This document shows positions 16,090 through 64,000 of a stretch of 64,000 nt of DNA, in pieces; within the stretch, counting starts at the first letter, position 1; each line of letters begins with the position of its first letter. The notes beneath the pieces were generated by a model. That model was given only the letters and a program-made list of their open reading frames with translations. It was not told where the DNA came from and ran no database searches. The DNA lies in NCBI GenBank assembly GCA_963805065.1, contig CAWDSS010000010.1, positions 407,059-471,058 on the forward strand, in the 5' to 3' direction. The translations under genes were made by a program, and so were the position numbers. The stretch is from Candidatus Omnitrophota bacterium. GTDB taxonomy: Bacteria; Omnitrophota; Gorgyraeia; Gygaellales; Profunditerraquicolaceae.

Positions 16090-16145
16090 TCAATCCTCCT
16101 TGCCTGCAAAGGCACACCCGCGCAACTCCACATAAGCGCGGGGTG

Positions 16146-17647: not shown

Positions 17648-17670
17648 AACGACCTCTCAAATAAACCTCT

Positions 17671-17783: not shown

Positions 17784-17795
17784 CATCAAACAAAC

Positions 17796-19507: not shown

Positions 19508-19512
19508 GTAAG

Positions 19513-20367: not shown

Positions 20368-20425
20368 ATTTACCCCTTTCTTTTACCAGCAGAATTCTTC
20401 TTCATTTGTATCTTTTATAAAGTAA

Positions 20426-20482
20426 TTATATTACTATTGTAATATTAATTATATGTAAATTCTATGTAAAGTTTATGTTAAG
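20426..20482 (-). promoter_or_regulatory. candidate Pho box (three 11-bp-phased TTTACAT/TTAACAT direct repeats) plus a TATAAT -10 upstream of pstS (operon 1)
   Basis: Plus-strand ATGTAAA at 20454-60 and 20465-71, ATGTTAA at 20476-82 (TTTACAT/TTAACAT on the coding strand); ATTATA at 20426-31 is a TATAAT on the coding strand. Confidence 0.5.
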
Positions 20483-23666: not shown

Positions 23667-23671
23667 CTATT

Positions 23672-23706
23672 TTATAAAAAATGCGGCAGGAAATCTGGCC
23701 TGCCGC
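23672..23706 (-). terminator. intra-operon hairpin plus T-run between pstS2 and pstC2 (attenuator-like)
   Basis: GCGGCAGG(23683-90)/CCTGCCGC(23699-706), followed on the minus strand by ATTTTTTAT. Confidence 0.45.
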
Positions 23707-23742
23707 ACCTAGGAGGCCTTAAATTGAGGAAACGCTTTATTT

Positions 23743-37000: not shown

Positions 37001-37563
37001 TTTTCCTTGCAGGTGACGAATTCCATGATATCGGGATGATCTACCCTTAGTATCCCCATATTTGCCCCGCGGCGAGTACCACCCTGCTTAACCGCTTCGG
37101 TTGCCGCATCATAAACTTTCATAAAAGATATCGGCCCGGAGGCAATCCCTCCGGTAGTTTTTACCACCGCATTCTTGGGGCGAAGCCGCGAAAAAGAAAA
37201 TCCCGTGCCGCCGCCTGATTTATGTATGAGGCTGGTAACTTTCAGGGTTTCAAATATAGATTCCATGGAATCGTCAATTGGTAAGGTAAAACATGCGGAA
37301 AGCTGGCCTAAGTCTTTTCCTGCGTTCATAAGGCAAGGAGAATTAGGCATGAATTCTAAAGAAGTCATGATTTCTAAAAAATACTTTTCTAAGTTTGCCA
37401 CTTCTGTTTCGCTCTTTGCGTAAAGTTTATCCGCCAGCGCAATTGCCTGGGCGACCCTGCGAAACATTTCTTCCGGGGTTTCAATTACTTTGCCCTGTTC
37501 GTCTTTTTTAAGGTACCTTCTCTCTAGCACCTTAAGGGCATTTTCCGAGAGTTTCAGTTCCAT
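34039..37563 (-). CDS. nrdJ: class II (adenosylcobalamin-dependent) ribonucleotide reductase NrdJ, interrupted by an intein
   Basis: 1174-aa ORF; exteins total ~764 aa with active site IESTNP|CGEQPLLPYESC and a C-terminal Cys-rich zinc ribbon CPDCGG...CVKCHACGFSKC. Confidence 0.9.
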   Translation of the reverse strand: MELKLSENALKVLERRYLKKDEQGKVIETPEEMFRRVAQAIALADKLYAKSETEVANLEKYFLEIMTSLEFMPNSPCLMNAGKDLGQLSACFTLPIDDSMESIFETLKVTSLIHKSGGGTGFSFSRLRPKNAVVKTTGGIASGPISFMKVYDAATEAVKQGGTRRGANMGILRVDHPDIMEFVTCKENNKHITNFNISVAITDDFMNKLKNGEDYDLIDPHTHKVVQSLNTKTVFDLIVKQAHKNGEPGIIFIDRINQYNPTPRLGKIESTNPCVVGDTLVSTEKGLVKIKDLTRDYSGGGIGIFTDDRILDALFSVEEEGSVATEVKLGVSLNRISRVFKTGVKPVFKAIAKSGFELIATADHKVMTTEGWVRVQDLKPRIHKVLIQSGAGKFNDNTCLPFNIKNEYIGENSKSYKFNFPSRWSKELGQVLGLLVGDGWLRDQDENCRTGFTFSQDDLEILDYIKPIINNFYGQDIKEVLRENNVYHLSYHSKYFVEFFKSLGIKAWDSEQKEVPDLICTAPKEAVIGFLQGLFTADGTIGIEETNNTTYIRLTAKSLKLLKGVQLLLINLGIYSKIYDRSRRERRGFAYTSAGGERRDYILDGVCHELQISRDNIKKFIEEIGFLCNKNEKKLKILSKHNFYSSEFEDTIDKIEYLGEQEVYDLTEPATLTFISNGFISLDCGEQPLLPYESCDLGSINLAVMHKNVGGRIEIDWDKLKQVTRLAVHFLDNLIDVNKFPLPQIEKATKVTRKIGLGVMGWSSLLIILKIPYNSDEAVALAEKVMSFILEESTAKSLELGKEKGVFPAFKGSIYDKKDHPMKMRNATLTTIAPTGTISIIAGPSSSGIEPIFAVSYYRNVMDNDKLVEVEPLFEEIAKERGFYSRELMEKIAENASIQNIEGIPDDVKRIFVTAHDISPEWHVRMQAAFQKYVHNATSKTINFPHDATLEDVRKAYLLAYETGCKGITIYRDKSREEQVLNVGTAKQKQEPIGMEFKKEIAPRPRPEVIIGTTTKVSTGCGNLYVTINVDEEGRPFELFTQMGKAGGCAASQLEAIGRLVSLGFRSGIEVKSIIEQLRNIRCPSPSWEKGQRIFSCADAIARVVERRLVNSQLLKASVEAAASISMKHSHEDEIITTDLEDRGDIVGVCPDCGGALRHEEGCVKCHACGFSKC
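35515..36744 (-). mobile_element. intein (410 aa) with a LAGLIDADG homing-endonuclease domain, inserted immediately before the catalytic Cys of NrdJ
   Basis: Starts CVVGDTLV (Cys codon at 36742-36744); block B TADHKV; dodecapeptide motifs LGLLVGDGWL and FLQGLFTADGTIG; block F VYDLTEPATLTFISNGF; ends ...ISLD followed by extein Cys (Asp codon 35515-17, Cys 35512-14). Confidence 0.85.
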
Positions 37564-45736: not shown

Positions 45737-45924
45737 TAAAAAGTTAAAACTAAAAAGTAAAAACTCAAAACTGTAACTCAAAACTTAAAAGTTTTGAGCT
45801 TTACGTTGCAGTTTTGCGTTTTGCATTTTACGTTTTGCGTTTTTTACCGCCTCCTTTCTACTTTCCTACTTTTTTACTTTTTGCTTTTAAATTTTTTTAC
45901 TTTTTGCTTTTTACTTTTTACTTC
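45737..45924. repeat. long AT-rich heptamer-periodic tract: A-rich half (AAAAGTA-like units), then T-rich half (GTTTTGC/TACTTTT units)
   Basis: aaaaagttaaaactaaaaagtaaaaactcaaaactg...gttttgcgttttgcattttacgttttgcg...tactttttgcttttaaatttttttactttttgctttttactttttact. Confidence 0.6.
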
Positions 45925-48371
45925 CAGAGTTTCTTATACAAGTAATAAGACTTGCGTAATTGCCTTAAAAACGGGCTTAATTTTCCGTCACCCTGGCCGC
46001 AAATTCCCAGCCACTCCTCATGCATATAACCGTCGGGAAACGGCCCGGTAAATAATCCTTTTGTATCATGCGTGTATGGCTCATAAGCCTTCCACCATTC
46101 ATCCAGCCATTCAAACGCCACTGCGCCGATAGAGTTTCCCGCACCGGTGTGAAATGCCATGTTGTTTTCAATATCCTCCCAGGAGCCCTGATGATACACT
46201 GCCTGGGCTTCTTCAGCCTCATCCAGGGAACTGCCTTCTGCGTATGCAGGGCAGCCATACTCTGTAATAAACACCGGCACATCTGCTTCTTCTCTTACGC
46301 TTTTCCAAAGCCTGCCAAAACCATACTCTCCCCGATAGGCGTTAGTGCCGAAAATATCAATATCAGGCGCATCTTTGCCGAATTTATCCAGGAATAATAT
46401 GTCGCCGCTACAAATTGCTACAGGATGTTCGGGGTCAATTTCTTTAATGTGGTTTGCCACTTCATTTGCGAATTTAAAAAATGCGTCGGGTTCCTTATTG
46501 GCATTACAGGCATAGCCGTAAACATTTTCATTACCCAGGAGCCAGAATAATATGTAGGGTTCATCTTTAAATTCCAGAACCATGTTAGTCACTGACTCCA
46601 TCATGTTTTTCTTTTGCTCTTCATTAGTATAATCTGTGCCCGGGCTCCAGGGTGCGCCTGAACCCAAAGCATATTTACCCAGGAAATCGCCCATAATTAC
46701 CATTATCCCGTAATTATCGTAAAGGTCGCGCATAATTTCCTTATGCATTTTATAAGGGTGGTGATAAATCCTTAGGGCATTTACACCCATTTCTTTCATT
46801 AGCCTGAAATCTCCTACTGCGGGTTCGTCTTTATCCTGCAGATTATTTCTGTTTTTATCCACGAAAGCATCATACGGACCGTCTGCCTTGCCGTTCTTAT
46901 TAAAATCATCCTCCATCCAGTTAGTCATTGTCCCGTTATCCGGAGATTCCCCTACTTTTGTGGGAGCATAAGTCAGGCCCTTGATGACAAACGGCTTATT
47001 ATTAACCAGCAATTCCCAGTCGCCGGTTTCATATTGCACTAAATGCACCCTGCCTTTACCGCGCCTCTTTTTTATGCTCAAAAGGTCTTTAGAGGGTTTT
47101 GGCTTGAATTTATCAAGAATACCGATTTTCACAAACCTGCCCGGGTTAGTAATTGTTATATCATTAGAAACGTCATTATCATAACCATTGATTATTCGGA
47201 TATCCGCATCTACTAATTTGTATCCCAACTGCGGATTCTTATGCAGTAAATAATTTATCTTGGCAATTGCTGCTTGGCCAACATACCAGGGCGTATGCCA
47301 ATAAGTCCAGCCGTAACTCCCCGGGTAATGCACTACAATTGCATAATAACATTTAATCGCATGTTTAATTAGGCCGGATTTTTCCAAAAACAAGGCGGTA
47401 TAAAATAATTTTACTCCCTCTGGCTCAGGCGCATTAGCCCATTTTAAAAACCCTGCTTCCAAATCAGGGGAATGTACAAAATCCCAGTGCGAGCCTTCCA
47501 GCCGCTTTTGTTTCATGGCTGTTTTAAATTCAGGATCCCAGCGCACAGAGCTGGAATTGGGATAAATCCCCTCGCCTACCGCCTGAATCAGGCCTTCCTG
47601 ATCGGTAACCACATATTTATAATCCTTAGTCCCTACGTTTTCAAACTTTCCGTATTTCCCATAATCTACAACATCTTCCTTGCCGGGATCATAGAGGACT
47701 ATTTTTGTGGGCAGCTGGCTTACTTTTATTTTTACTGTTTCTTCAGGCATTGTGCCCGGGCAGGGCGCAGGCAATTTTTCATTGGGATTTAATTTAAGTA
47801 TACTTTCTCTGGCAGCCCTGGCAACAGACCAAAACCAGCCTCTAGGGTCCCAGGCTTGCGCAAAACAATATTTTTCCACCACTACTTTAAAGGCCTTAAT
47901 GGACTCTTCTTTCTTTCCCTGATCCCTGTAAGATTCGCCTTGAATAAAATGCGCTGTGGCAACGTCATTTAATTCTCCCACAGCTTCAATATCCGGCCTG
48001 TTCTTAGGCAGGGATTTTAATGACGCCTGTTCTTTCTCTGCTTGAGGAGTATACAAATCTATTAACTGCTGGGTGTATTTGAAGGTTTCTTCTATGTTCT
48101 TTTTTCCATGGGCATTCCAGGATTTAACGATAAGCTCGCCGGATGTAGGTTTGTCTTGAGCGAATAAGTAGCGACATGTACTAAAACAAAAAATAAGCGA
48201 TAAACAAATAATACATAGGTCGATAGTCGATAGTCGATAGTCGATAGTTTTGAAAGAAAAGGGGACGTTTCTATTTTTAAATAAATAACATAACGTAGTA
48301 AAAATAGAAACGTCCCCTTTTCTTTTAGACCATAGACCCTTAGATTTATTTTTTCTATTTATTTTTTTCAT
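45918..48371 (-). CDS. large secreted GH2-like clan GH-A glycoside hydrolase (N-terminal extra domains plus a C-terminal TIM barrel paralogous to 43220..44575)
   Basis: 817-aa ORF; ILFWLLGNENVYGY and VPVFITEYGCPAY; signal-peptide h-region IDLCIICLSLIFCFSTCRYLFA|QDKP. The leader reads through palindromic repeat D and (GTCGATA)x4. Confidence 0.55.
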   Translation of the reverse strand: MKKINRKNKSKGLWSKRKGDVSIFTTLCYLFKNRNVPFSFKTIDYRLSTIDLCIICLSLIFCFSTCRYLFAQDKPTSGELIVKSWNAHGKKNIEETFKYTQQLIDLYTPQAEKEQASLKSLPKNRPDIEAVGELNDVATAHFIQGESYRDQGKKEESIKAFKVVVEKYCFAQAWDPRGWFWSVARAARESILKLNPNEKLPAPCPGTMPEETVKIKVSQLPTKIVLYDPGKEDVVDYGKYGKFENVGTKDYKYVVTDQEGLIQAVGEGIYPNSSSVRWDPEFKTAMKQKRLEGSHWDFVHSPDLEAGFLKWANAPEPEGVKLFYTALFLEKSGLIKHAIKCYYAIVVHYPGSYGWTYWHTPWYVGQAAIAKINYLLHKNPQLGYKLVDADIRIINGYDNDVSNDITITNPGRFVKIGILDKFKPKPSKDLLSIKKRRGKGRVHLVQYETGDWELLVNNKPFVIKGLTYAPTKVGESPDNGTMTNWMEDDFNKNGKADGPYDAFVDKNRNNLQDKDEPAVGDFRLMKEMGVNALRIYHHPYKMHKEIMRDLYDNYGIMVIMGDFLGKYALGSGAPWSPGTDYTNEEQKKNMMESVTNMVLEFKDEPYILFWLLGNENVYGYACNANKEPDAFFKFANEVANHIKEIDPEHPVAICSGDILFLDKFGKDAPDIDIFGTNAYRGEYGFGRLWKSVREEADVPVFITEYGCPAYAEGSSLDEAEEAQAVYHQGSWEDIENNMAFHTGAGNSIGAVAFEWLDEWWKAYEPYTHDTKGLFTGPFPDGYMHEEWLGICGQGDGKLSPFLRQLRKSYYLYKKLWK
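48219..48246. repeat. heptanucleotide tandem array (GTCGATA)x4, perfect
   Basis: gtcgatagtcgatagtcgatagtcgata. Confidence 0.85.
48257..48322. repeat. palindromic repeat, copy D (extended-arm variant AAAAGGGGACGTTTCTATTTTT / AAAAATAGAAACGTCCCCTTTTC)
   Basis: Loop aaataaataacataacgtagt. Confidence 0.85.
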
Positions 48372-48377
48372 TGAACT

Positions 48378-49226
48378 CTATCCTACAATTGCTCCCTGGG
48401 TTACGCCTTTCACAATATATTTCTGCATCAGCACGTAAACTATTATTATAGGTAAGGCAGTTATGGTTAAGCCTGCCATTAACAACGGATAATTCGTGAC
48501 AAATTCTCCCTGGAATGTCTGAAGCGCAACCTGAAGCGGCATATATTGCTTTGAATCAAAAATTATCAAAGCCAGGATATATTCATTCCACACGTTCAGT
48601 GCGTTAAATACAACCACTACTGCTAACACCGGCTTTGCCAAAGGTAAAGCCACATGCCACCATATTCCTAATTTTGAACAACCATCTATCCTGGCTGCGT
48701 CTTCCAGCTCTTTGGGCAATTTATCAAAAAATGTCTTTAATAAAAATATGCTGGTAGACAACCCCACGTTAATCATGCATAAAATATAGCCTATGGGAGT
48801 ATTTCTCAGATGCAGTTTATTCAATAATACGTACAGGGCAACAAAACTTCCCGGTATAGGAATCATCATCGCTACCATAAACATGAGAAATAAAAAATTC
48901 CTGCCGGGAAAACGAAAGCGTGAAAATGCATACGCTGCCATGGAAGAAATAATCACTATGCCCACTACCACTGATACGGTATATAAAATACTGTTCAGGA
49001 AATACCTGTCAAACCCGCCCTGAATCCAGGCCTGGTAATAATTTGAAATATGGAATGTTTTTGGGATTAGCGAGTTGTCTTTAAATATGGTTTCCTGCGT
49101 CTTGAGGCTGGAAGAAACCATCCACAAAAGAGGAAAGATACAGCTGATTGAGACAGTGATGAGGAAAATGTGTACCAGCGCATTTACGGTTACTCTTTTG
49201 ATTTTATAATAAGCAGTCGTCTTCAT
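48378..49226 (-). CDS. carbohydrate ABC transporter permease (MalG/UgpE-like)
   Basis: 282 aa; EAA loop region LEDAARIDGCSKLGIWWHVALPLAKP. Confidence 0.8.
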   Translation of the reverse strand: MKTTAYYKIKRVTVNALVHIFLITVSISCIFPLLWMVSSSLKTQETIFKDNSLIPKTFHISNYYQAWIQGGFDRYFLNSILYTVSVVVGIVIISSMAAYAFSRFRFPGRNFLFLMFMVAMMIPIPGSFVALYVLLNKLHLRNTPIGYILCMINVGLSTSIFLLKTFFDKLPKELEDAARIDGCSKLGIWWHVALPLAKPVLAVVVVFNALNVWNEYILALIIFDSKQYMPLQVALQTFQGEFVTNYPLLMAGLTITALPIIIVYVLMQKYIVKGVTQGAIVG

Positions 49227-49232
49227 ATGTTT

Positions 49233-50159
49233 CTATTGCATTTGCCGCGCTCTTTTGGAGAAGCGGTATTGGATAAACGATATTATTACTAATACCACGC
49301 CGAAAGTTATGCCTTGTGCGCAGGCATAGCCGAAACGCGATGAACCGCGCATGGAAGCCAATATTCTTAATACAGGAACTGAAGTATAGCCTGCCAACTC
49401 TCCGCCTACCAATCCGATAATCAAAACAAACGCCTGCATGGTTCCCAAAACCGTAAGTATTGCCACCAACACCGCAACCGGTATCATCAAGGGAACTGTG
49501 ACCCTGGTAAAAGATTGCCAGGCATTTGCCCCGTCCACTCGTGCTGCCTCATATAGCTCGCGCGGAATTGTTTGTAATCCTGCCAAAAATATCAAGAATC
49601 CCCAGCCAAAGCCTTTCCAGGAATGCACCAATGCCACAGTTGTAAGGGCAGTCTTGGGATCTGAAAGCCAGTGATGCACTAATTGCGGCAGGCCCACACT
49701 AACCAGCATACGGTTAATAATATTAGCACCATCAACATCGTTGATAATAAAACGCCAGGCCATGCCGACTACTATTTCCGATAAAACAGGCGGAATGAAA
49801 AATATCATCCTGTAAAAATTCTTCGCACGTATTTCTCTGTCGCAAGCCCAAGCCAGAAGAAAAGCCAGCGCGTTCTGGAAAGTCAGGGCGATTAGTGTAA
49901 TGTAACCTGCGTTCCGCATGGCTTGCCACCAGCTGGGGTCCTGTAAAATTATTTCTTTGAAATTGTTAAAACCGACAAATATCTTGGTGGGCAATATGCC
50001 GTCCCAGTCATAAAGGCCCAATTGGAACACCCAGATAAAGGGTATGATATAGAAAATTACAAATATTGCTACGGCGGGGAGAACAAATAAATAGTTTTCT
50101 AAAGTGGATTTTATCCGCATATAAAACTTTATTAATTGTAACTTAATGTCAAATGACAA
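49233..50159 (-). CDS. carbohydrate ABC transporter permease (MalF/UgpA-like)
   Basis: 308 aa; LYEAARVDGANAWQSFTRVTVPLM. Confidence 0.8.
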   Translation of the reverse strand: MSFDIKLQLIKFYMRIKSTLENYLFVLPAVAIFVIFYIIPFIWVFQLGLYDWDGILPTKIFVGFNNFKEIILQDPSWWQAMRNAGYITLIALTFQNALAFLLAWACDREIRAKNFYRMIFFIPPVLSEIVVGMAWRFIINDVDGANIINRMLVSVGLPQLVHHWLSDPKTALTTVALVHSWKGFGWGFLIFLAGLQTIPRELYEAARVDGANAWQSFTRVTVPLMIPVAVLVAILTVLGTMQAFVLIIGLVGGELAGYTSVPVLRILASMRGSSRFGYACAQGITFGVVLVIISFIQYRFSKRARQMQ

Positions 50160-50168
50160 AACTCAAAG

Positions 50169-50232
50169 AAAAGGGGACGTTTCTATTTTTAACGTTTCCT
50201 AATCAGAAGAAAAATAGAAACGTCCCCTTTTC
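50169..50232. repeat. palindromic repeat, copy E (extended-arm variant), itself nested inside a 12-bp outer inverted repeat
   Basis: Loop aacgtttcctaatcagaag; outer CAAATGACAAAA (50143-54) / TTTTGTCATTTG (50279-90). Confidence 0.85.
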
Positions 50233-50295
50233 TTTGGTTGTCGAATTACTTAGATTAAGGGATTTATTTTGACGTTGGGATTTTGTCATTTGTTA

Positions 50296-51594
50296 TTATC
50301 TTCTTTTGGCTAATTCTCTTTCTTTTATTGCCTGCGTGAGGCTAGCTACCTCTTCGGGGGTCTTTTCTCCGAGGATAATGGATTGTATGCCTTTGTCCCA
50401 CGCTTCTATGACTGCAGAAAATTCTGAAACGCCCCAAATATTCGGGTGCGTTGAATATTCCATGCCGTTGGCAAATTCCGATAAAATATCGGATATTTTA
50501 GTTGCGCTGTTTTTATTAGCCGGCAGGTTATTGGTTGTTTCAGCCAAAAATGCCTGCTGGTTTGTGTCGGTAAACCACTCTAAGAATTTAACTGCCTCTT
50601 CCTTGTTTTTAGAACGCGCGTTAACCATAAATGAGGAGCCCGCACCTCCCCAAATCGCCATAGGATATTTATCCGATTGCTTGGGGGGAAGAAACGCTGC
50701 GTACTCTAAATTGGGATTCATGCCTTTGTAAACATTAACGCACCATGAGCCATTAAAGGCAAACACTGCTTTTTCATTGGCAAACAGCTGCTCTGCGGTC
50801 TTATTGACCATAATCAACAATTCTCCCGAAGCCAGCCCTGCATCCCTCATATTCTTAAAGATGGTTAAAACCTGAATCCAGTCAGGGTCAGTATAAGGAA
50901 CTTCGCCTCTTATTGTCGCTAAAACTTTATCCTTGCCCATAATATTAAAGGCGTAATTATTGGCAAAGCAGTCAATCATCCACAGCTCTCCCCATCCGGA
51001 AACAAAACCCTGCAGATTAGCTTCCTTGATTTTTTTAGCCATATCCAGGAATTCCTGCAGGGTAACAGGAGGTTTTTTGGGATCAAGGCCAAGAGTTTTA
51101 AATAGATTCTTGTTATAGACCATTTGAATAGTCATCACGTCTATCGGTACACCGTAAATGCCCGGCTTTACGTTGTAACTATTTCCTTCAATAAATTCAT
51201 TTACTGCTAAGGCCTTGGCAAAGAAAGAGTTTTTCCAAGAGCCGCTATTTTCTTCCATAAAAGGGGTTAATTCCAGAATATGCCCGGCTTTGATAAAAGA
51301 GGCGAAATCTCTTTTTTCGCCTAAAATTCCAAAAATATCCGGGAGGTTTGTTCCCTGGGCAGCTGCGCGCACTTTCTGAGTGTAGGCATCAGAAGGGGCA
51401 TATAATTCAAAATTTACCTTTACTCCGGCCTTTGCTTCATACCTCTTTGCCAACTCCTGGAATGCCGGCTCTCTGTCTGTCATCCAGTGCCAGACAGTTA
51501 TAGTTGGTTTTGTTGCTTTCTGGCCGGAAGAACAGCCAATAATAGAAAATATAAGGACAAATAGCGCTAAACCCCCAATGCGTAACTTACCCAT
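50296..51594 (-). CDS. extracellular solute-binding lipoprotein, family 1 (sugar ABC transporter SBP)
   Basis: 432 aa; lipoprotein signal LALFVLIFSIIGC|SSG; SBP_bac_1-like sequence. Confidence 0.8.
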   Translation of the reverse strand: MGKLRIGGLALFVLIFSIIGCSSGQKATKPTITVWHWMTDREPAFQELAKRYEAKAGVKVNFELYAPSDAYTQKVRAAAQGTNLPDIFGILGEKRDFASFIKAGHILELTPFMEENSGSWKNSFFAKALAVNEFIEGNSYNVKPGIYGVPIDVMTIQMVYNKNLFKTLGLDPKKPPVTLQEFLDMAKKIKEANLQGFVSGWGELWMIDCFANNYAFNIMGKDKVLATIRGEVPYTDPDWIQVLTIFKNMRDAGLASGELLIMVNKTAEQLFANEKAVFAFNGSWCVNVYKGMNPNLEYAAFLPPKQSDKYPMAIWGGAGSSFMVNARSKNKEEAVKFLEWFTDTNQQAFLAETTNNLPANKNSATKISDILSEFANGMEYSTHPNIWGVSEFSAVIEAWDKGIQSIILGEKTPEEVASLTQAIKERELAKRR

Positions 51595-51726
51595 GTTTCT
51601 TTTGCTCCTTTCCCTAAAGATTTGAACTTAAAGTATACCACCTAAACACCGCCAAATCAAGGTTGTCAAATTAAATTGAATAAATCTAACATAAGTTTAA
51701 AGGCGGGTCAAGATTTTTATTGGGCT

Positions 51727-52431
51727 TTATATCGCTCTTAACACGCGAGATAAACCCATAAGATCGGCCTTTTCCAGGTTAACGCCTACCTTGTACTTAT
51801 TGGTATCCACCATTTTTGACCAGACTACTTCACCTCTGGTGTACAGCGGCTCGCCCTTATCAGGAATTTCAAGCCACATTTCCAAAGCAGTCCTGGGGTG
51901 TAATTGCTCATTTGCCGAGATACCAATACCTTTAGCGCTGACATCTTCAATTGAAGCCTGGCTCTCTTTATTTTCTCTAAGGTTTATAAACTTCACGGGA
52001 AAAGTCGCATTAAACCTGTCAAAAATCCTGCGGTCTTGAAATTTTTCTTCTTCCATTGTCTCACCCCCTTCAGGTATTGTGTCTTTCCACCATTGGTTAT
52101 TTACCAGACGAGGAAAATTGCTGCGCATAAACTTATAGATTGTTTCCTTATCCCCGTCCTTAATCTTATTGAAGCAAACGCCATGGATGTTGACGCTGCC
52201 TATTGTTTTATGCCAGGCTACCCACGCTTCTATATTTATAGCAGAAACGTCAGATAAAACAATAGTTAATTTCACAAACTCATCTTTCGGTAACTTCATC
52301 TGCAAAGCAAGGTTACAACCCAAGAAACTGATATCGCCCACAGTGCAGTCCGCGCAATTTTCAGCTCCCTGAAGCTTCACCTTAAGCTCTTTGTTTATTT
52401 TCCACCTCGCACAACGCCTTCGCCCTGTCAT
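51727..52431 (-). CDS. tandem PilZ-domain protein (two c-di-GMP-binding PilZ modules)
   Basis: 234 aa; module 1 RRRCAR ... DISFLG; module 2 RRIFDR ... DVSAKG (RxxxR plus D-x-S-x-x-G signatures); the ATG overlaps the stop of the giant ORF (ATGA). Confidence 0.65.
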
Positions 52432-55400
52432 CTCACTCCTTTCTGTGGCTGGTAATAGGTTAAGTTTATATTAGGTAAAACAGCGGCATTAGCATGCAAG
52501 CCGCTATTGACAATCGGCAATAAAGTTCCATCTGTGAAATGCGAATTGTCAGCTGTGAATTGAATTGGTGAACTAGAATATTTCTCTTCCCAAACTCGAT
52601 CAACAAACTGAACTAGCCTGTTTATCGCATTCATATGCGAATAAAGGTATTGGTTTAACTTTGAAAATTCAACTTTATGCCGTGGATCAATAAACAACTG
52701 AGCTACTAATTCTGCGGCATCCTGACCAAATTCGTTTCTTGTAGAATCGTATGTGTATATAATATATTCTAAAATTCTGTAGGTATCTTCAGCCATAAGT
52801 TGCTTTGCAAAACCTAAAAGTTGTCGATCCAACGTGCCCTTGAAATGGCCATAAACTTGATAGATCCATATCTTGTCAAGCTGAATCAAATTTGTGAAAG
52901 AAATTGCTCCTGCTGTAGCCTGCGGCAATTCAGCCAAACTCAAAAACTCATTATATAATTCCTCCGGAACGAATCCCAAATTAACAATAGCAATATTAGT
53001 ACCGGAAAGTAAAGCAGGGCTATATTCTCCTTTGATTAAATCAATATAACGAATTCCGTATTTCTTCACTGTTTCTCGTAACGAATTAGATTCCGACCAA
53101 TCGTTAGACCTTCCGAAAGTAAAGAGAGTTACGTCTCTTTCTTTAAGATGAACTGCACTCTCTTTGGCTTGCGCAATAATCTGCAGGAACTGAACAAGAT
53201 GCTTCCAGGTAAATTCTTGGTAATAGGTCGTCCACAATGAACTAGCTATGCTATTTTTATCAAATGGCAGGGTTTTTAGCAATTGTCTCATCTTTAACTT
53301 TTCTAGGAAACACGCTTTGGCTTGTTGATTATCTTGAGATTTATCATTTTGCTCTTTTTTAACAAGCTCGGGGTTAAAGTATAAGCCAACGCCATTGCTA
53401 AAAAGGCCAGCTTCCAAATAAAAAGTCTCTGCATCCCTTGCCCCTCTAAGAGGAGAATGATAATCATCAACAATAATCTTTAAACGCCCTCCTAATCCAA
53501 AAGGAATATCATGATTAAACGAGACGATAAGATCAACCGGTGAAATTTGTTGCCGTTCCTTTTCGCTTGGATATTGAATAAACAAAAGACCGTCATTCTC
53601 AAAATAATCCCCAAAAGTCCTCTCCCGTCCAAAAAGAATCCTTTGAGCCTGACAAAACCCCCAATAGCTTAAATAGATTTGAATCGCTGCCTGCGGATAA
53701 AATTGTTTTATTGTCCGAGCAAGATTAAGGACAACGCCCGCATCTCCGTACCCTTGATCTTCCTCCGTAGACGGTAACGCAACGAGCCTTACAGACCTAA
53801 TTTCATCTTTGGCGACACTCCGAACCATTTTTACTTTTTTACCCTTCGCTCCCTTTTTTATCACCGGCGAGGCGGCGCGTTTTTCGGTTCTAGGTGTTAG
53901 GTTTTTGGTTATTGAGCTAGAACCAACAGACACCGGCGAAGAGACAAAACTTATACTCTGTTTGGCTACCTGGAAAGCTTTTTCCACATCAAGAAAAGCC
54001 GAGCCTTTATCGTCAATTTCAATTTCAAAACTATTTGAAAACACATCGAGAAGTTGCTCTATTTCTCCAGAAGTTAACTTCTCTGTAAGAAGATACGAAA
54101 AAACTTCACTTATATATTCGCCAAAAGCTGAAACAAAAACTCTATGGTTGTCAGTTGAAACAGTATCTTTATAAATAATAAGCTTATACCAGCGCTGGGC
54201 GATATACCTTAAAAGCTCTAAGTTTGAGACGTATTGCTCTAAATCTTCCTGTGCGAATGCCCAGGCAAGAGGAACGCCGTAATATAGAGTTTTACAGGGT
54301 GGCATATTTTCTGAAAGAAACTGCTCGCCGAATTTCAGCGTCGTTACAAAAACGTCGTCTTTTTTAACAAACAATTTTTTCAACATGGGTATCAATACTG
54401 TTTCTGCAAAATCAGTGAGAGTTTTTGATTTATTTAAATGGGCGATGAAGTCCTCTGTCGCCCGGTCAACACTTGAAAACAACCATTCCTTTTTCTCAAG
54501 GCGCTCTTGGACCTTCGGATCATAAAGTTTCCAAAGACGCACATAACTGTTAACGCGTCCATTAACCCTATAGTCTTCATAGAGCTCTAAAACCCGGGCA
54601 ATCGGCTCGCAGAAACCGTTAGGGTTAACGCTATCATTTAGGAGTTGTGTAAAAAACTTATCAATCTGCTTTCTATAAGCTAAGAGGATTCCGCAAAATA
54701 TTTCAAGCGGCTCAAAATTTTCACCAAGTTTCTCTAAGACATAGCTGGCATTATAATAGCCCTCAGGCGCAACCTCTAGGCCATCCAAATCAATGACAGA
54801 CGCATAATAGTAGCCATTTTTATGTAAAGCATAAGCATTATCTTCATGCGGATCGCGTAAAAATAACCCTTTGTTAAAGACGCGCCATAAATGAAGATAC
54901 ATGGCTACTTTCAGGCTGTTTTTCTCGAAAGAATTTAGATCCTCTGTTTCTTTGAGGTATTGCTCTGTCATAATGATGCGTTCTTTTTGAGTCCCGGGCT
55001 CATAGATAGTATAAGTCATTCCATACCAAGGATGATAATCTAAATCATATTTATGAAGCCTGTCGACCACGCAATCCATGAGGAAAGTAAAGTTAGAATT
55101 ATATTCATAGCCATCCAGCGTCTTTGTAACATACTCCCGGACGACCTTAAAAACAATGGGATACTGCCGTCTGCTTTCACCCTCTCCATACTCCAGAGTC
55201 ATTCTAAAGAGGCGCTTATAGTTACCACTGTCGTCAATGAGTTTAACCTCTTTGATTTCTATATCTTGGGGCCTAGCATGAATCTTAAAATTGATTCTAA
55301 ACGTATCAATCTTAAAATCAGGCTCTTCAGCTACCGCATAAAGCAAAGCCACATCCCTGAGATATCCTTTGCCATAACGCTCTAAGTTCTCATGTAGGGC

Positions 55401-58400
55401 TTCAAAAAATGCTTTCTGCTCTCTAGGAGAAAGGCCTTCCTCAAAAAATTCCCCCTGCTCTTTAAAGGTTCGCGTTAACAATCTTTGTTCGATCTCTTCG
55501 ACATTGTCAACATTCATGCTATAGAATTCTTTCGGATGGCCTGGTTTACAAATAGCCTTGGCGAATGCATTCAAATTGGAATCTTTAAAATTAAATTTAA
55601 CCGGCGAGCTAACCGTGTCTTCTGCACCATTTTTGCTGGTTCGGAATGCCGCCGCGAATCTTCCCAAGGAAAATTGATCACCAAAAAGATTACCGCCTGC
55701 TCTGTATCTGCGATAAATATCCAATACTTCGGCTGTCGAATAACAAAATCCGCTTGGATTAATAGCATCAGAAATCATTTTTTCAAAGAACTTCTCATAT
55801 TGATGGCCGTAAGCTAAAAGGATTCCGTAGAATACTTCAAGAGGCTCGAAATTATCCCCAAGTTTTTCAAGAACATGACTTGCATCAAAATCTGATTCGT
55901 AGCCCACTTCCAAACCGTCTAAATCTATCATCAAAGGATAATATTGGCCTTCCTTTTCAATAATCATCACATTCTCATTATGGGGAACACGAACAAATAG
56001 CCATCCTTCAAAAATCCTCCAGAAAATAAGATAGAGCGACACCTTTAAACTGTTCATCTCGAGCGCTCCTAAATCCTGAGTCTCATCCAAATATTGTTCT
56101 GTTAAAATCAAGCGTTCACGACCAACCAAAGGATCATAAAGAACATGGGTTGTCCCATATTTAGCATGAAAAGCGGGATTATATTTTTGAATCTTATCAA
56201 TAATGCAATTTACGACGTTCACAAATTCAAAATTATAGGGGTATCCGTTAAGAGTTCTTAATTTTTCGTCTCTAACAACCTTGAGAACTATAGGGCATAA
56301 TGCACCGCTTATTCTATCTTCCAAAATTAACTTAAAAACCCTTTTGAAAGTGCCGCCATCATTTAAGAAACTCAGTTCTCTCACGGCGATATCTTTGGGG
56401 GCCGCTATAATATCAGAAAACTTTTCTGAGCCATCTTTCTTAAAACCGCCTTTTTGGATCATGGAATAAATCAAGGCTACATCTTTAATTAAACTCTCGC
56501 CGCAACATTGTGCACGCCCTGTTTTTAGAACCTCCATAAAAACTTTTTGCTCTCCAAAGGAAAGCAGGCTTTCCCTAAATTCTTCATTAACCAAAGCTTG
56601 AATATCAGCAAGGAATCTATCCGGCTGAAGATTAATTGTTTCTTTAGCATGAGTAGTTATACAAAAAGATTTTGCAAAATCATTCATTGCCTGATCTTCA
56701 AAATTATATTCTATCCCTTTGTAGTTAGAATTTTTGTTGAAAGATAAACCGATTAGATTGTTTTTGACCGGCGAGCTGGATTCGGCTCCTTCATTTTTAG
56801 GCATCGGTCCCTCGGCTTGCAGCCTCGGGACTCCCTCGCCTCTCATTGGGCTCGTGCTCGGTCGCGAGGCGGCGCCTTCGTTAGTTCTCAGTTTCCGGTT
56901 TCTAGTTTTCAGATTATGATTCTCAACTAACAACGGACAACTGACAACAGACAACTGCAAAGCCGGCGAGGCGGCGTGGGGATTTTTTCCTGCCGGAGAG
57001 CTGCCAGATTTAGTATCTTCAGCCCACGCTTCTTGAACTTTCTTGATTCCCGAGAGGTCTTCTAATTTTTCCTTAAGCCTTGAGAGTTCTATTTCCTTAT
57101 CTACTTCTAACAACAAACCGTCAAGCTTCTGGATTATCCCAAACAAATCAACTTCAGGAAAAACCATTTCTTTTAAAATTGAAAGCAATTTTTTTCTTCG
57201 TAATTGCTTATCCGGTAATTCAGCTCCCGCTGCCGGTGAGCTAGAGAACAGCTGCCTGTTTATCTTAAGGCGTTCTGCAAGCTCTCTGGCCATCTGCCAA
57301 CGCCATTCCTGCCTATTTTGAGTCCCTTTATAGAAGAAACCTGTTATAGTAGTCCCTCTTTCTTTCTCGCTATCCATCGATAACAAAATCTCATAGCGCG
57401 GAATACATAAAATTTTAGCTATACCAACATATTTAGAAACAATCACCACGCTTTCTCTGACATGTTCTATGACAGAAACATCGGAATATTTACCTACGCT
57501 ACGAGTCAATCCCTCTCCTGCCCATCCCCCAATTCCGTTTTCCCTGTGCCATTCAACAGCCCTTTCGATAGGGATAAGCCGTCTTCTCTTATCACGGAAG
57601 CCCAATCCTGCATCATGAATGGATATTAAAACAAAATCATCAACCTCGCAGCGCACGATTAAACCCAGAGATCTCTTTGCGTGCTGGTTAGTGTTTTCCA
57701 CAGAGCACGCAGTAAATTCATTTTCATCGCCCCTTATCTTTCCCTTAGTGATAACCGGGATTGTTTTTGTTAAATTAAAATAATCATCCCGGAGGCTACA
57801 TTTGTAATCCAAGCCATCTATTTTACGGCTACTCATGGCAGCCCCAATAATCCATGTATCCATTCCTTCAAGCGCCTTCAATTCGTTTTTGACCACAATA
57901 AACTCTTTCAAATCTTTTTTGGGATTCAAAGCCATCCTCATAAAATTTCTTGCTTTTGGCACAAAAGAAAACACCCTCTCGTCTATCACCGATGAGCTTG
58001 CTTTAAGCGTAGTCGAAGGGAATAGTTGGACCTTTGGCGAGGCGGCGCATTCAGGCGAAGCAGGGTTTTTATCGAGAGGGGAACAGGATTGACTAGTTGT
58101 TTCTTTTTTCTCAAGTGAATTCACGCCAACAAACGAGTAGTACATATGCTCAGCATCCTCAATAGGCGTTTCAAGGATTCTTTCTTTCAAAGATGCGATA
58201 TACCTTGCGTCATCTTTTCTTTGCAGAATTTCTGCGGCTTCTTGTGCTTTATTTTCTCTGCCTAATTCGATGCTTTTAGCAAAAGTATATAAAATATCTT
58301 TTCCGTTTTTACCAAGCTTTCTTTCGATAAGATCCAGCCTCCCGTTAATAAAAGCCTCCCACAGCACTGGTAATCCTACGTGCTGTGATAATAAATCTAT

Positions 58401-61400
58401 AGCCTCTATAAGCCAGGCATGCCTGTAACGGGTTGAGAATTCCCTGCATTGGTTAAGTAAACTCAAAACCAGATAATCCACTAACGCAAGTTCAAAAAAC
58501 CTGAATTCCGATTCGCAAAAACCATCGAATAAGAGGCAAAGCGCTTCTCTCATTAGATACGGCTCTAAATCTAGCCCCTCAAATGAACTGCCATCGTTAT
58601 TCCAGCGAGAAGCAAGAATACGAGCTTGATAAGGTACTCGTATCACTATGCCATTAGACAAATGGCTCACAAACAAAACAATATGAGACAAGTCAATCGT
58701 GGAATTAAACGCCTGAGAAAGCCTATGAGAAACATTCCTTACGCTTTGTTTTTGAGCTTCATTTGGCTCTGTAATGTGACGTTGTGCCACTCTAAAGTAG
58801 GAAGCAAAAATGACCTTTTCCACATAAAATGCCATAATAAAGGCATTTTCTCTTTCGGCTTTATAATTATTTCTTGTTTTGCTGCGTTTTTCAAACCCCT
58901 TGATAAAATTCAAAATTGAAAACATATCTCTTTTGCGCAGATGACGAAACGCCTCTATGAGACCTGCTTTTGCAGCCTCAGGAGCCTCAACTTTATTTAT
59001 AATTTGTCGTATCCCCGTGCGATATAAATAATCTATATACCTTGCATCAGGAGATAAGTCATTGATATTGTAAGCGTTACCCGCAACAACGATACAACCA
59101 TCTCCGAAAGGAATATCAGCCCAGTCTGCCTCATCATAGCGAACAGTAAAAGAGAAAATGGTTTCCTTATCAAAGGTCATTCTTGCAAAATAGCGCTTAT
59201 CTTTCAGGTCATCGGGAACTAACCTCTTCATTACTACGGAATCCTGCCACTTCTCTTTAAATAAATTACTGTGGAGCCTTACATTAAGGTCTTGCTCACC
59301 AGGAATATTGGCAAAAATGAAGTTTTCTTCACCCACTAAATTAGCCTGTACTGTTCCCGAATAGGGGAAAAATCTTTTTTCCTCCAACAGAGCTAATAAA
59401 TCCAGGTAATCTCCTAGTTTCTGATTTTGAATAGCGGTTATCACTCTCTCAAAGTATGAGAAATCAGGAACCTTCTCAAGGAAAGTATTAAATCTAAATC
59501 CGCAAAGGTGCTCATATAAACCTTTACTTATTAATATGCCCATAATGTTATGTGCAGCACGAAGAGTTTTTACATTACCCTCAGCTATACGCATCAAATC
59601 AGGCAATATATAAACTTCATAATTATCAACGTTAGGGAACCGTTTGTAAAAATCAGCGATTAAATCTGGAACAGCATCTAAGATAGAAAGATTATAAGCA
59701 TATCTAAGCCATTCCCATCTTCGATCATAAAATCTATCGAGGTCGCGCTCAAGAAGGAGTAAACGATAAATTCTTTCTACAGCTTCTTCTTTATAAGGCC
59801 TTAATTGCTCTGGGCAATTATCATTAAATAATTGTTCGGCGGTTTCCCATTGCTTCCACTCTCTCTTCATTGATTTTAAGACAAGGCGGATAGAAGATAT
59901 TTCTTTATCTTTATTGAGTTTATCTACCCATATATGATTTACGCCTAAAGACTCTCTCTGCGGATTAACAGAAGTCAAAAGTTGACTGAAAAACCAGATG
60001 GCTTCAGGATGATATTTATCCTTCATATGAGGAATCGCCCATTCTATCATGATATCAATAAATGGTTTTTTGTTGATGTCGCCCAATATAGAATCGAAAG
60101 TGGGCTTTTCTTCATATGCATCATGATCATTGGTAAGAACGAGAGATTCAAGAGTAATAGTAAGGTTTATATTTCCTGGTTTGTTATGCGAGATTAATTC
60201 TTGGGCATCGAACTTTCTAGCCTCTTTGGTACTGAATTCGGCTGCTCCTCCTTGTGCGATTATTGAATTCACATTAAACCGCTCAGGATACTTCTTGTAT
60301 TGAGCAGTTAAGCCATATCGTTTTAGAATAGAGGTTAACTCAGCGGTACGATTAAGTGGAGGGAGCTTTATGTTATAGTTAATTTTCTCCGGAAAATATT
60401 TTTCTAGTATGCTTACCAAAACAGGCAAACTTCTGCCCCGTTTTTTAAATACTCCTTCGTGGTTAGAATCAAGAGAAATCACTAATATCACGTTAGAAGC
60501 AATCTGAGCCATAAAATGCTCAAGCTCTGTTTCTTCTGTAGGTAGAAAGAACCCACTGGTAACCACGTAAACTTTATCTATATTAGCGGCGATAAAATTA
60601 ACTATTTTAAGAAAATCAGGATACAACGTAGGCTCGCCTCCCAGCAACCGGACACTTGAAAATCCCCGTATGTCTTCGCTAATAAGTTTTTTGAGTTTCT
60701 CACAAGGAAAAATAGCACCCGGATTATGCTTCATAGCTTTTTCTGCACAGCAAAATGGACAGCCCAAACCACACCTGAAAGTCATTATAAGATTAATGTG
60801 ATCTTCAAAATCCAAGAAAGTGCGCAAAAGATCATATGTTATTGCAAATCGATATTCAGAATGTAATATCCTGTCTAGGATATCTTGCATTGTCTCAAAG
60901 CGCTTCCTTTCTTTATCCTCCATCACCGGCGAGGCGGCGCGGGGATTATTTTGCACTGGAGAACCGGATTCTTCAAAAACCTTACATAAGTTTATGATTT
61001 CGGTTGACCCCCAAAAATCAACCTTTTCAATTTCAATATTCGGTGATCCTAACTTTTCATTAACATATTTCTCGGGGTTGGCAAAAACTCCGGGCTTAGA
61101 AGGATCATGGCTTTTTAGAATAACAGCCAAACATCCATCGGGCGTAATACAAAGGCTTGAGTAGAACGGCTCTTGTTCTCTTTCAAAACGACTTCGCTCT
61201 AAAAGACCTAACTTTAATGCCATGGAAAACGCGCGTCCTTCATAAAAGATACCATGGATATTCTGCTTTAAATTGATCTCAAATTCTTCTCCCAAGGGAA
61301 CCCAAACCAACTCTCTTGTCAAGTTATTGAACGACTCTTTCAATGCATTACCACGTACACTAAAAGGCTGCAGTTCTCCTAATTCCCAAATAATCAGGTG

Positions 61401-63956
61401 GTCTTGCATTGAATCATTTTTGTAAGATAAAGGTAAGAATTGAATTATATCACGATATCTACTGTAGTATGACACTAACAGCTTTCTAAAATCTTCTGAA
61501 TCAACCCCACCATGTCTCATGACTGCTTGTATAACATCCGGATAAAACAAATGAAAACTAAAATATGGCCATTGTGAAGAATTTTCCACAGGATTAAGGG
61601 ATTGAAAGACTTTTTCAAGAATATCCCTATTATTCTGATTAATAAGTTTCTTGGCATTAATAACCAAATCTTTTCTCACTGGAAATCTAGGCAATAACTG
61701 AGAGATAATATAAGCTAAATCACGACGATTTAAAGCATCTGAATCAAGTCTAGTTCCTATTTTTAATGCAGGCCATTTATTAGTTATCGAAAATATTAGT
61801 AATCTGAATAATTTAGGTGACATCTGTTTTACGGGTCCCATAGCATCAAACAGACAATGTTCACATGCATCATTACAACCCCATGTGAACAAAATTCCTA
61901 TCTCTTTGTGGTTTTTGAGCCATAATTCAACAATCATTTGAAATTTTTTTGTAAAGCAGGGAAATGAATTGTTTATGAAATTTTCAATCGTAGGCGAGGC
62001 GGCGCGGGGTTTTTCTCCCACTGGCGAGCTGGATCGAGTCTCAAGATCACCATAAAGATCATAAATAAGCCTCTTTTCAGCATCGCCTAATATTTCATAG
62101 GCGGTTGCAGCCTCTTTAAATATTTTTTCGGCTTCTTTGTTGTTAGGGTTACGATCAGGATGAAACTTCAAAGCTATGGCTCGATATGCCTTTTTGATCT
62201 CTTCCCGCGTAGCATCAGGTTTAACCCCAAGAGTCTTGTAAAACTTAAGCGACTTATTATAACCATTGACGCTGTTAAGAGAATTGTAAGACAATGCATT
62301 GATATACCGCGGGAGCTCCGAATAGCTATCGTCTGTAAGAATATATCCTATTTCTCTTAAGTAAATAACAATTGAATAAGCGGTATCATAAATATTCTTT
62401 CCTTGAGGTTGAATAATCCAAGTCTTGAGGATCATAGGGTTATCGTGGCAGACAAAAGCGACCTCTATAAACCTCTCTCCTGGCCTGCCAGGACCTTCAT
62501 TTTTCACGCGTATATCAAGGACGCCTTCTTGGTAAGGTATTTGGACAATATCTGCTTCTGGGCGGCCAATACTGTTTGTATCAGAGGCCCGAACTACACT
62601 CTTTTCCAAGCCGCCCGAGCTGCTCAAGCCTCCTTTCAATACATTCTCCATCCTATCGCATGATTTTGTTGGTTCAGCTTCCTGATGCATTTGATCAAGC
62701 AGCGCCAAATCATAAGACTCCACAGCTTCAGAGTTGAATACCAGTAATCTCTTCCCGTCTACAGAGAAGAAAGGCTTATCTTTTTCCCCCAGCTTAAGTG
62801 CAATTTTTTTGCCATTGATAGTAGTACAAATCAAATTAATGACTTTTGTCAAACCGTCATATATATGCAGATAGCTCCCACACGCAGAATAATAAGTATT
62901 GAGCAATGCGCCACGCGTATTCAAAGGAACGATTTTTGCGTTATCCACATGATAGATGGCACAGCTAGGATCAACATCCCAGTTTATTTTGTTAATGTCA
63001 TAACAAAGAAGTGTACTGTCAAGTGTTGGTGATATAGAAAATTGATAGAGATTGGGGGCGATAAAAGTCCTTTCTTTTGTTTTGAAATTATACACTTCTG
63101 CTGAACCACACAAACTGATAAATAGCGAATCTGGAATAGCTATAAAATTAGCAAAACTCGTGCCTTGGGGGATAAGAAATATTTTCCTAGTTTCAAACTC
63201 ATAAATTACTTTCTCTTTATTGTCCAAGCGCAAGATGGCAAATTTTTCATCTTTGGGAAAAACATGAATAAACGGCAATCTCCCCGGCTGCACTTGGGAT
63301 AAATCAACTTCAAGGCCTGTCTTTAGATCAAACAGGCTGCTATTATAATCTTCTTTAAACATTACAATGGCGTATCCATCTTGCCCTGAAATATGGACAT
63401 GAGACACTTGACCTTCGAAATTTATATTTAAAACTTCTCTTTTTTCGATATCGATTATTTGCACGGTGTCATTAGGGAAATAAACAGGTATCAAACTACC
63501 GCTTCTTGAAAATGTACCAAACATACTGGCTCCCTTATGCAATCCCTTAATTTCTAAAACCCTTCCCGATTCTATATTGATTATTTCCGGTGAAAACAGT
63601 TTGCCGCGGTAGTCGATCGCCAGATACATATCCTTTGGCGAAAAATTAGCGCTCAAAACATCTGTTTTTAACGATAGCTCAACGATCTTTCCAGATGCAA
63701 CTTCATACAGCTTCTCATCAACAAAAGCAAACTTTCCTTTCCTAGATATGAAATTACTATGTGCATAGTGATAGTGATCCATATTATATGCATTGAATCC
63801 CGGAAGGCGCATTCCTTGTGTCTCAAGAGGAGAACTACTAAGCCTCGGCGAGGCGGCGCGGTTAAAATCGGTCGATAGTCCATAGTCTATAGGCGATAGT
63901 GAAAGTCCCGTGTCCTGACCATTGACCATAGACCATTGACCATAGACTGATTTCAC
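52428..63956 (-). CDS. giant multidomain protein (3842 aa or more; the ORF remains open upstream of the GTG start and continues past the window edge)
   Basis: Uninterrupted 11.5-kb ORF; domains are listed as separate features below. Confidence 0.8.
54657..55364 (-). other. giant protein: atypical protein-kinase-like module 2 (internal duplicate of module 1)
   Basis: PIVFKVVRE ... MTEQYL ... LRDPHEDN ... VIDLDGLEV (IDLD at 54783..54794); DPHxxN resembles the catalytic loops of ABC1/UbiB- and APH-type kinases. Confidence 0.5.
55782..56504 (-). other. giant protein: atypical protein-kinase-like module 1
   Basis: PIVLKVVRD ... LTEQYL ... VRVPHNEN ... MIDLDGLEV (IDLD at about 55917..55928). Confidence 0.45.
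56925..56959. repeat. heptanucleotide tandem array (CAACTAA CAACGGA CAACTGA CAACAGA CAACTGC) inside the giant ORF
   Basis: Encodes ...[13 protein letters not shown]... within a low-complexity linker. Confidence 0.7.
57387..57689 (-). other. giant protein: GHKL/histidine-kinase-like ATPase region
   Basis: [12 protein letters not shown] (DxGxG, about 57597..57626) ... [10 protein letters not shown] (G2-like); extent approximate. Confidence 0.4.
60087..60809 (-). other. giant protein: radical-SAM domain 2
   Basis: [18 protein letters not shown] (CxxxCxxC at 60750..60773) and [15 protein letters not shown] (GGEP at 60630..60641). Confidence 0.65.
61257..61904 (-). other. giant protein: radical-SAM-like domain 1
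   Basis: [15 protein letters not shown] (CxxxCxxC at about 61854..61877); extent approximate. Confidence 0.5.
62052..62246 (-). other. giant protein: DnaJ J-domain
   Basis: [62 protein letters not shown], with the HPD tripeptide. Confidence 0.8.
62397..63779 (-). other. giant protein: beta-propeller-like repeat region (WD40/PD40-like)
   Basis: Repeating ~40-aa units with (I/V)xxxD and YD/FD strand motifs; extent approximate. Confidence 0.35.
63883..63950. repeat. heptanucleotide tandem arrays (GTCGATA/GTCCATA/GTCTATA ... GACCATT GACCATA x2) inside the 5' end of the giant ORF
   Basis: gtcgatagtccatagtctataggcgatag...gaccattgaccatagaccattgaccatagactgat encodes [31 protein letters not shown]. 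Confidence 0.75.
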
Positions 63957-64000
63957 CGGAGAGGCGGCGCCTTCGTTAGCTTTCGGCCCAAGACGTACAG

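Follow-up and report, generated by a model that had tools for sequence, protein, structure and literature searches.

The giant genes of the Omnitrophota can be as long as about 86,000 codons, and few bacterial genes are so poorly understood. Their surroundings have been described by West-Roberts et al. (bioRxiv 10.1101/2023.11.21.568195), who reported pilZ immediately downstream of the giant genes, followed by carbohydrate import (Fig. 7C of that work), and a secretion locus upstream of them. GGDEF is among the recurrent domains of the giant proteins, and the same authors proposed that c-di-GMP is linked to the giants through these modules; the points at which the giants are cleaved were given as unknown.

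Stand-alone PilZ-PilZ tandem proteins of about 230 aa, in which two canonical barrels both keep their C-terminal helices and motifs, are a known, uncharacterised architecture, with Bll4394, Blr5568 and SMc00999 as examples (Galperin and Chou, bioRxiv 10.1101/814665). Another set of described proteins, YcgR, MotI (DgrA), PlzA and MrkH, has the same size and two-barrel fold; here c-di-GMP can pull the domains together by means of an RxxxR motif in the linker between them. Their N-terminal barrel is degenerate (PilZN, PilZN3 or MrkH-N) and lacks the motifs, and their partners are the flagellar motor and DNA. Control of a giant adhesin by c-di-GMP is known from the LapD-LapG-LapA system of Pseudomonas, where the receptor is a degenerate GGDEF-EAL protein that acts via a periplasmic protease. 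The resemblance of that system to the locus described below, a cytoplasmic receptor that is encoded beside a very large surface protein and controls its fate, is an analogy of concept, with no homology.

The locus studied here lies in a window of 64,000 nucleotides, the whole stretch of DNA that was analysed, and comprises the following features.

52428-64000, minus strand: 3' end of the giant gene, 3,856 codons, open at the window edge, with DnaJ and Radical_SAM domains
52436-52442, minus strand: Shine-Dalgarno sequence AAAGGAG, inside the end of the giant ORF
52428-52431, minus strand: ATGA stop/start overlap of the giant ORF and pilZ, 4 nt
51727-52431, minus strand: di-PilZ gene (pilZ), encoding a predicted cytoplasmic c-di-GMP receptor of 234 aa, 26.8 kDa and pI 8.7
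51677-51720, minus strand: promoter-like element (A-tract, CTTGACC, 17-nt spacer, TRTG-n-TAGATT), after the pilZ stop and at the head of the sugar-importer operon
45918-51594, minus strand: downstream module, with the genes of the next three lines
50296-51594, minus strand: lipoprotein-type solute-binding protein
49233-50159 and 48378-49226, minus strand: two permeases
45918-48371, minus strand: GH2-like hydrolase

This is the arrangement of West-Roberts et al., namely a giant gene, one or more small pilZ genes, solute-binding-protein-dependent carbohydrate transporters and glycoside hydrolases. Like the giant-associated pilZ genes of that work, the pilZ of the window is co-directional with the giant gene, lies immediately downstream of it and is followed by transporter and hydrolase genes. 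As the layout is already published, the finding and its interpretation are known at the level of gene order and hypothesis. Tandem architecture, conservation of the motif sets, the stop/start overlap and the promoter-like element are absent from the two main-text passages on PilZ in that preprint and are added here; a 2026 preprint on complete Omnitrophota genomes makes no mention of PilZ. The tandem canonical architecture, with one universal and one variable site, and the coupling seen in this lineage add a little to the known layout. We also add figures for the linkage in both search directions, evidence that pilZ belongs to the transcription unit on the giant side, and the observation that conservation is lacking at the giant end beside pilZ, a constraint on models of direct docking. 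The conserved hinge occupied by pilZ is of interest as one of few small, expressible and testable handles on the regulation of the giant genes.

Within the protein, the domains and motifs are placed as follows, the Pfam scores being those of the two halves scanned separately.

52405-52419, minus strand: RxxxR motif 1 (R5-R9)
52318-52335, minus strand: DxSxxG motif 1 (D33-I-S-F-L-G38)
52126-52422, minus strand: N-terminal PilZ barrel, residues 4-102, then helices 92-114 (Pfam 38.5 bits, AlphaFold2 model)
52033-52092, minus strand: interdomain linker, residues 114-133, with the nearly invariant G123-E124-x-M126 (low model confidence)
52015-52029, minus strand: RxxxR motif 2 (R135-R139), where the linker meets the barrel, a position shared with YcgR-type receptors
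51928-51945, minus strand: DxSxxG motif 2 (D163-V-S-A-K-G168)
51769-52032, minus strand: C-terminal PilZ barrel, residues 134-221, then helix 224-233 (Pfam 40.1 bits, AlphaFold2 model)

An initial annotation, made from the sequence alone, had noted the two RxxxR...DxSxxG signatures and read the protein as a c-di-GMP receptor, and the profile and fold comparisons agree with that prediction for both modules. PilZ (PF07238) matches the whole 234-aa protein in two stretches with 74.4 bits (E=1e-20), and each half on its own exceeds the gathering cut-off of 22.5 bits; an HMM of the N domain also cross-matches the C domain of the di-PilZ protein (i-E 2.7e-5). The AlphaFold2 model (pLDDT 80) has two six-stranded barrels (E10-89 and E140-219) with a helix behind each, and residues 114-134 fall below a pLDDT of 50 where the linker runs into the second RxxxR. 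When this model was compared with the PDB by Foldseek, the top matches were the two-barrel receptors MrkH (2e-9), PlzA (2e-8), MotI/DgrA (1e-7) and YcgR (2e-6), followed by the single PilZ domains of BcsA, Alg44 and MapZ. These matches have low TM-scores (0.33), as the model leaves the orientation of the two barrels to each other undefined. A search of PDB sequences with a PilZ-family profile gave nothing below E=0.4, and the solved PilZ structures are linked to the family by fold comparison only. No hydrophobic segment was found in the 234 residues, and the sequence and the model describe what is predicted to be a soluble, cytoplasmic tandem PilZ-PilZ protein.

The two predicted binding sites differ in their conservation. 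Across an alignment of 33 relatives (49-79% identity), no exchange is seen in either RxxxR motif or at D33 and G38, and D163xSAKG168 is nearly as strict, with A166, K167 and G168 invariant. Among the best 120 of 408 relatives, the C domain has RxxxR in all 120 and [DN]xSxxG in 113, and the N-domain RxxxR is present in 117, whereas the N-domain DxSxxG position has Ser (DhS/NhS) in 55 and Asn in place of Ser (DhN/NhN) in another 55. Because the C-domain motifs are near-universal and the N-domain Ser is variable, the C-domain site is the universal predicted c-di-GMP site of the family, and since the N-domain Ser is Asn in about half of its members, binding at the N site is uncertain family-wide. 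In the protein of the window, the N-domain site reads as canonical. The protein very probably is a functional c-di-GMP-binding PilZ protein.

The PilZ-PilZ protein of the window can be assigned two domains of the canonical type since both pass the profile cut-off and have the barrel with its C-terminal helix, RxxxR and [D/N]hSxxG. This is the architecture of the tandem proteins of Galperin and Chou, and the likeness is one of architecture; those examples are mainly alphaproteobacterial, whereas the Omnitrophota family has an EAWVxWHK strand, a GGE-M linker motif and a conserved loop of its own. Membership of the YcgR type (PilZN-PilZ) was considered and rejected, as the N half is matched by Pfam PilZ rather than by YcgR or YcgR_2 and carries the motifs. 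The protein also falls outside the MrkH type, for its N barrel has helices 92-114 and its C-terminal helix contains only two basic residues, where MrkH has a basic, DNA-binding one. The flagellar motor and DNA, which are the partners of the YcgR, MotI, PlzA and MrkH proteins, have no indicated counterpart in the Omnitrophota locus.

The 408 relatives, the best 120 of which are about 230 aa long, come from a word-indexed protein search; a separate scan of one genome per species gave 79 loci. All 79 loci are from Omnitrophota MAGs, some of them labelled 'uncultured Planctomycetales' or just 'bacterium', and the di-PilZ family is restricted to this phylum. Forty-six loci have 3 kb or more of flank, and at 40 of them an ORF on the same strand, 1,000 aa or longer, ends no more than 1.5 kb upstream of pilZ; at 24 of the 30 loci with 10 kb of flank, the upstream ORF stays open throughout. 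The initial annotation had named conservation of the pairing of pilZ with the giant gene as a point to check in relatives, and these counts show the pairing to be conserved. Downstream, a binding-protein gene lies within 700 nt of pilZ at 54 of 59 evaluable di-PilZ loci, and in tblastn searches the solute-binding protein, two permeases and GH2-like hydrolase follow pilZ in almost every locus at 61-92% identity. The linkage was also found from the other side: in JGI metagenome contigs searched from the permeases, a PilZ gene lies upstream of the binding-protein gene at all 39 evaluable loci, with a large or edge-open ORF ahead of pilZ at 26 of the 29 with enough flank. Chance co-location of pilZ and its neighbours was rejected in view of this phylum-wide synteny in both search directions, and the ORF, the overlap and the PilZ signals are themselves far beyond chance.

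The family also shows a number of variations on this plan. About 22 of the 79 species-level loci have an extra single-PilZ ORF of about 115 aa directly before the di-PilZ gene (L013, L016, L027, L028, L037, L049, L053, L055, L060, L063, L069 and others), and about 10 of the 79 (among L072-L083) have only a single-domain PilZ of 112 aa that matches the C domain. At a few loci that lack the usual importer (L008, L078) or have another sugar module in its place (L090), pilZ is still preceded by a giant ORF, and orphan copies occur with neither giant nor importer (L050, L081). The pairing with the giant gene is conserved but not exclusive. A ComFB-CheR fusion gene lies a few kb downstream at the two loci without the usual importer (L008 6509-7648 and L078 9223-10308, both on the minus strand). 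A recent report (PMC12448109) describes ComFB as a cyclic-dinucleotide receptor domain, and PilZ proteins of the MapZ type bind CheR1 (PDB 5xly). At L004, and likewise at L005 and L006, a separate gene lies between the giant gene and pilZ; in L004 (7906-9420) it encodes a 504-aa HEAT-repeat protein that is 37-41% identical to the fused C-terminal module of the giants in L036, L064, L065 and L088. This similarity indicates that some apparently intervening genes are split-off giant modules, and the one in L004 may be either a real split gene or the product of an assembly frameshift. A small membrane-protein ORF (91-198 aa) is also found ahead of pilZ in the L004 subgroup.

At the junction itself, the di-PilZ ATG (52431-52429) shares bases with the TGA (52430-52428) of the upstream ORF, as had been described in the initial annotation. 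The upstream ORF ends in ...QKGVR-TGA, and the junction reads ...AAAGGAGTGAG-ATGA. The giant ORF is real, and the window covers only part of it. Its frame has no in-frame stop at 63957-64000 and is open to the window edge, so that 63956 is not its start, and on the Logan contig L001, which carries an identical PilZ, the called giant product reaches 18,085 aa before it is cut off by the contig end. Called giant products in relatives have 26,400 aa, 25,381 aa and at least 16,452 aa. Because of its DnaJ and Radical_SAM domains, and since no hydrophobic segment was found in the visible 3,856 aa, the visible part of the giant is probably cytoplasmic and would share its compartment with the PilZ protein.

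The same 4-nt overlap is present in L001-L003 and L062. Among 52 species-level loci, the first pilZ start lies no more than 100 nt past the giant stop in 30, and overlaps of -4, -8 and -14 recur in several lineages; a stop/start overlap is rare, at 3 of the 52, and the ATGA overlap, which had been taken to suggest a dedicated partnership, is lineage-specific.

A second conserved feature of the locus lies on the other side of pilZ. The promoter-like element has a family form of 45 nt (A-tract, CTTGACC, 17 nt, TRTG-n-TAAATT) that lies 5-60 nt past the pilZ stop. An nhmmer profile of it found the element at this position in about 70 loci and nowhere else among matches with E<1 in about 1.5 Mb, and its conservation is not confined to the -35 and -10 hexamers. 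In L012, L031 and L077, in which insertions have come between pilZ and the binding-protein gene, the element stays beside the latter. It is also present in L090, ahead of a different sugar module. In the window, the 370 nt ahead of pilZ showed no sigma-70-like site, and the interval between pilZ and the binding-protein gene no terminator-like site. The possibility that pilZ is the first gene of the importer operon was rejected because of the position of the conserved element after pilZ. Since this element lies between the two genes and stays with the binding-protein gene, and since pilZ starts close to or overlapping the giant stop, is kept where the importer is not, and has no sigma-70-like site before it, pilZ can be placed in the giant-side unit.

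On the basis of these comparisons, we tentatively favour a reading, which we hold at slightly less than even confidence, in which the di-PilZ protein would be a c-di-GMP-gated receptor or adaptor encoded by the last cistron of the giant-gene unit, ahead of a separately promoted importer/GH2 operon. That it functions within the giant/pilZ/importer module at all is a broader proposition, and a probable one. In the proposed mechanism, c-di-GMP would bind the conserved C-domain site formed by R135xxxR139 of the linker and D163xSxxG168, and in this protein probably the N-domain site (R5xxxR9 and D33xSxxG38) as well. The ligand would order the flexible linker and re-orient or close the two barrels, and this closure would switch binding to a cytoplasmic partner in the giant/pilZ/importer module, which may serve predation and feeding. 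The likeliest partner would be the cytoplasmic part of the giant protein or the machinery that handles it, and the signal might come from the GGDEF modules that such giants often carry. In the present lineage, the ATGA overlap would in addition link the translation of pilZ to ribosomes reaching the end of an ORF at least 18,085 codons long.

With respect to the source of the signal, the initial annotation had stated that no other c-di-GMP component is nearby, and within the window this holds. No GGDEF, EAL or HD-GYP motif was found in window ORFs of at least 150 aa, Pfam detected no c-di-GMP family in the 40 other window ORFs (which encode ATP synthase, glutamine synthetase, two Pst systems, ribonucleotide reductase and the like), no second PilZ was found in the window, and an Rfam scan of it gave no match to a c-di-GMP riboswitch. 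As a statement about the locus, it may be an artefact of the window edge, as more than 14,000 residues of the giant lie beyond the window and GGDEF recurs in such giants. Neither the 3,856 visible residues of the giant nor the final 10 kb of any related giant contain a GGDEF motif.

Whether the giant protein itself would be the direct target of PilZ is a narrower matter, and we regard it as possible, though somewhat less likely than not. The last 400 aa of 53 giants comprise 30 singletons that have no relative and a few small clusters; this lack of conservation means that no conserved C-terminal docking module adjoins pilZ. The point is illustrated by the window and L002, whose PilZ proteins are 78% and permeases 92% identical, and whose giants share over the last 10 kb (window 52428-62430, L002 1-10004) only a linker-like stretch of 63 aa. 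Flanks that are 78-92% identical around such a short match indicate very fast turnover of giant modules, or their replacement, between close relatives. The last 1,200 aa of the window giant found no match in the word-indexed protein search, and an exhaustive search of representative genomes with the giant returned no self-match and only 26 weak matches at module level. Its last 480-aa module found no match in Pfam and gave a pLDDT of 41 when modelled by AlphaFold2 from a three-sequence alignment. Against contact with the giant we would count its unconserved ends together with the link to the importer, which is at least as strict, the lack of a terminator before the importer, the rarity of the overlap and the absence of a visible GGDEF. 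The earlier proposal of a dedicated partner of the giant keeps its basis in conserved adjacency, but the importer link is at least as tight, and the proposal is plausible as one of several readings.

The importer link is the basis of the best surviving alternative, according to which PilZ would chiefly be a c-di-GMP switch of the sugar importer/GH2 module, with an ATPase encoded elsewhere or the cytoplasmic permease loops as possible targets, and its place after the giant gene would reflect membership of a shared module only. We consider this unlikely, yet it deserves weight. The counts on the importer side (54 of 59 and 39 of 39) speak for it, PilZ and the importer proteins are conserved to a similar degree and the giant's end is not, and no terminator-like site separates pilZ from the importer. 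The sugar-importer operon of the window, in which no ATPase gene was found, also leaves room for a regulated shared ATPase. However, the conserved promoter-like element stands in between and moves with the binding-protein gene at insertions, and pilZ is kept beside giants whose importer is missing or replaced. To our knowledge, there is also no precedent for a PilZ protein that controls a CUT1-type importer.

It is rather improbable that the adjacency is simply inherited gene order and that PilZ is a general effector acting elsewhere, for example on the type II secretion or type IV pilus-like ATPases upstream. PilZ proteins commonly act on pilus and flagellar machinery, as in PilZ-FimX-PilB and YcgR (see also PMC8389850), a secretion locus has been reported upstream of the giants (West-Roberts et al. 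2023), and the orphan copies in L050 and L081 have neither neighbour. Nevertheless, the gene order has been kept throughout the phylum while the giant gene itself was remodelled beyond recognition, and this, with the repeated stop/start overlaps, argues for selection on co-expression.

An improbable reading, too, is that of a c-di-GMP-dependent nucleic-acid binder like MrkH or PlzA, which would act on the promoter-like element after pilZ and turn on sugar import. The two proteins that rank first by Foldseek are of the same size and bind DNA or RNA in dependence on c-di-GMP (for PlzA, see PMC9915621), the protein is basic, as are most of its relatives (pI mostly 8.3-9.5), and the element is unusually conserved beyond its hexamers. 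On the other hand, Foldseek ranks all two-barrel PilZ proteins closely, at TM-scores of 0.33 and with the domain orientation undefined, identity to MrkH is 10-11%, and the N domain of MrkH lacks the C-terminal helix and the motifs, unlike that of the di-PilZ protein. The element is moreover fully explained as a strong promoter with a UP-like A-tract, -35, TRTG and -10.

The most far-reaching reading, in which the di-PilZ protein would be a stoichiometric, co-translationally coupled subunit of the giant that senses c-di-GMP made locally by the giant's own GGDEF modules and times the transition from prey attack, with the giant protein being deployed or processed, to feeding by import of the sugars set free, would if true amount to a self-contained second-messenger circuit around a single megaprotein, but it is improbable.

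The most original observations of this analysis are the promoter-like element described above and a peptide motif between the modules of the giants, both of which lie outside the di-PilZ finding itself. The motif, [AS][AS]SP[VAITL], occurs as AASPV or SSSPV and often as a doublet, SSSPV...PRAASPV. There are 10 copies in the 3,856 aa of the window giant against 0.08 expected, and none in the 16,375 aa of the other window ORFs. Across 48 non-redundant giant fragments it was found 182 times with a median spacing of 314 aa, and 28 of 53 giant fragments have three or more copies (L002, L009, L013, L047, L049, L060 and L084 are among the carriers). The motif flanks the DnaJ and Radical_SAM domains of the window giant, and it is a candidate linker or processing site of the giants. 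Its RAASP variant is encoded by one GC-rich 13-mer, GGCGAGGCGGCGC on the plus strand, which is present in 8 copies in the window, all within the giant gene, against 0.02 expected:

53866, 56863, 56965, 58036, 60928, 61993, 63847 and 63958, plus-strand coordinates: 13-mer sites

Five copies of this 13-mer are also present in the L002 giant, the modules of which are otherwise unrelated. The 13-mer might serve as a recombination joint in module shuffling, or it may reflect a strong codon-level constraint.

The giant of the window also contains two paralogous modules of about 380 aa, at residues ~2410-2790 and ~2795-3170 of the visible 3,856 (roughly nt 54490-56770). Both follow an SSPV motif and both match one module in L031; by eye only, their HxxN...IDLDG pattern is reminiscent of small-molecule or protein kinase folds. 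Elsewhere in the window, the gene for the large subunit of ribonucleotide reductase (34039-37563, minus strand) is split by an intein bearing a LAGLIDADG homing-endonuclease domain, and two Pst-type phosphate ABC gene sets, both including a PhoU gene, come one after the other (15421-24636, minus strand), with a putative porin next in line.
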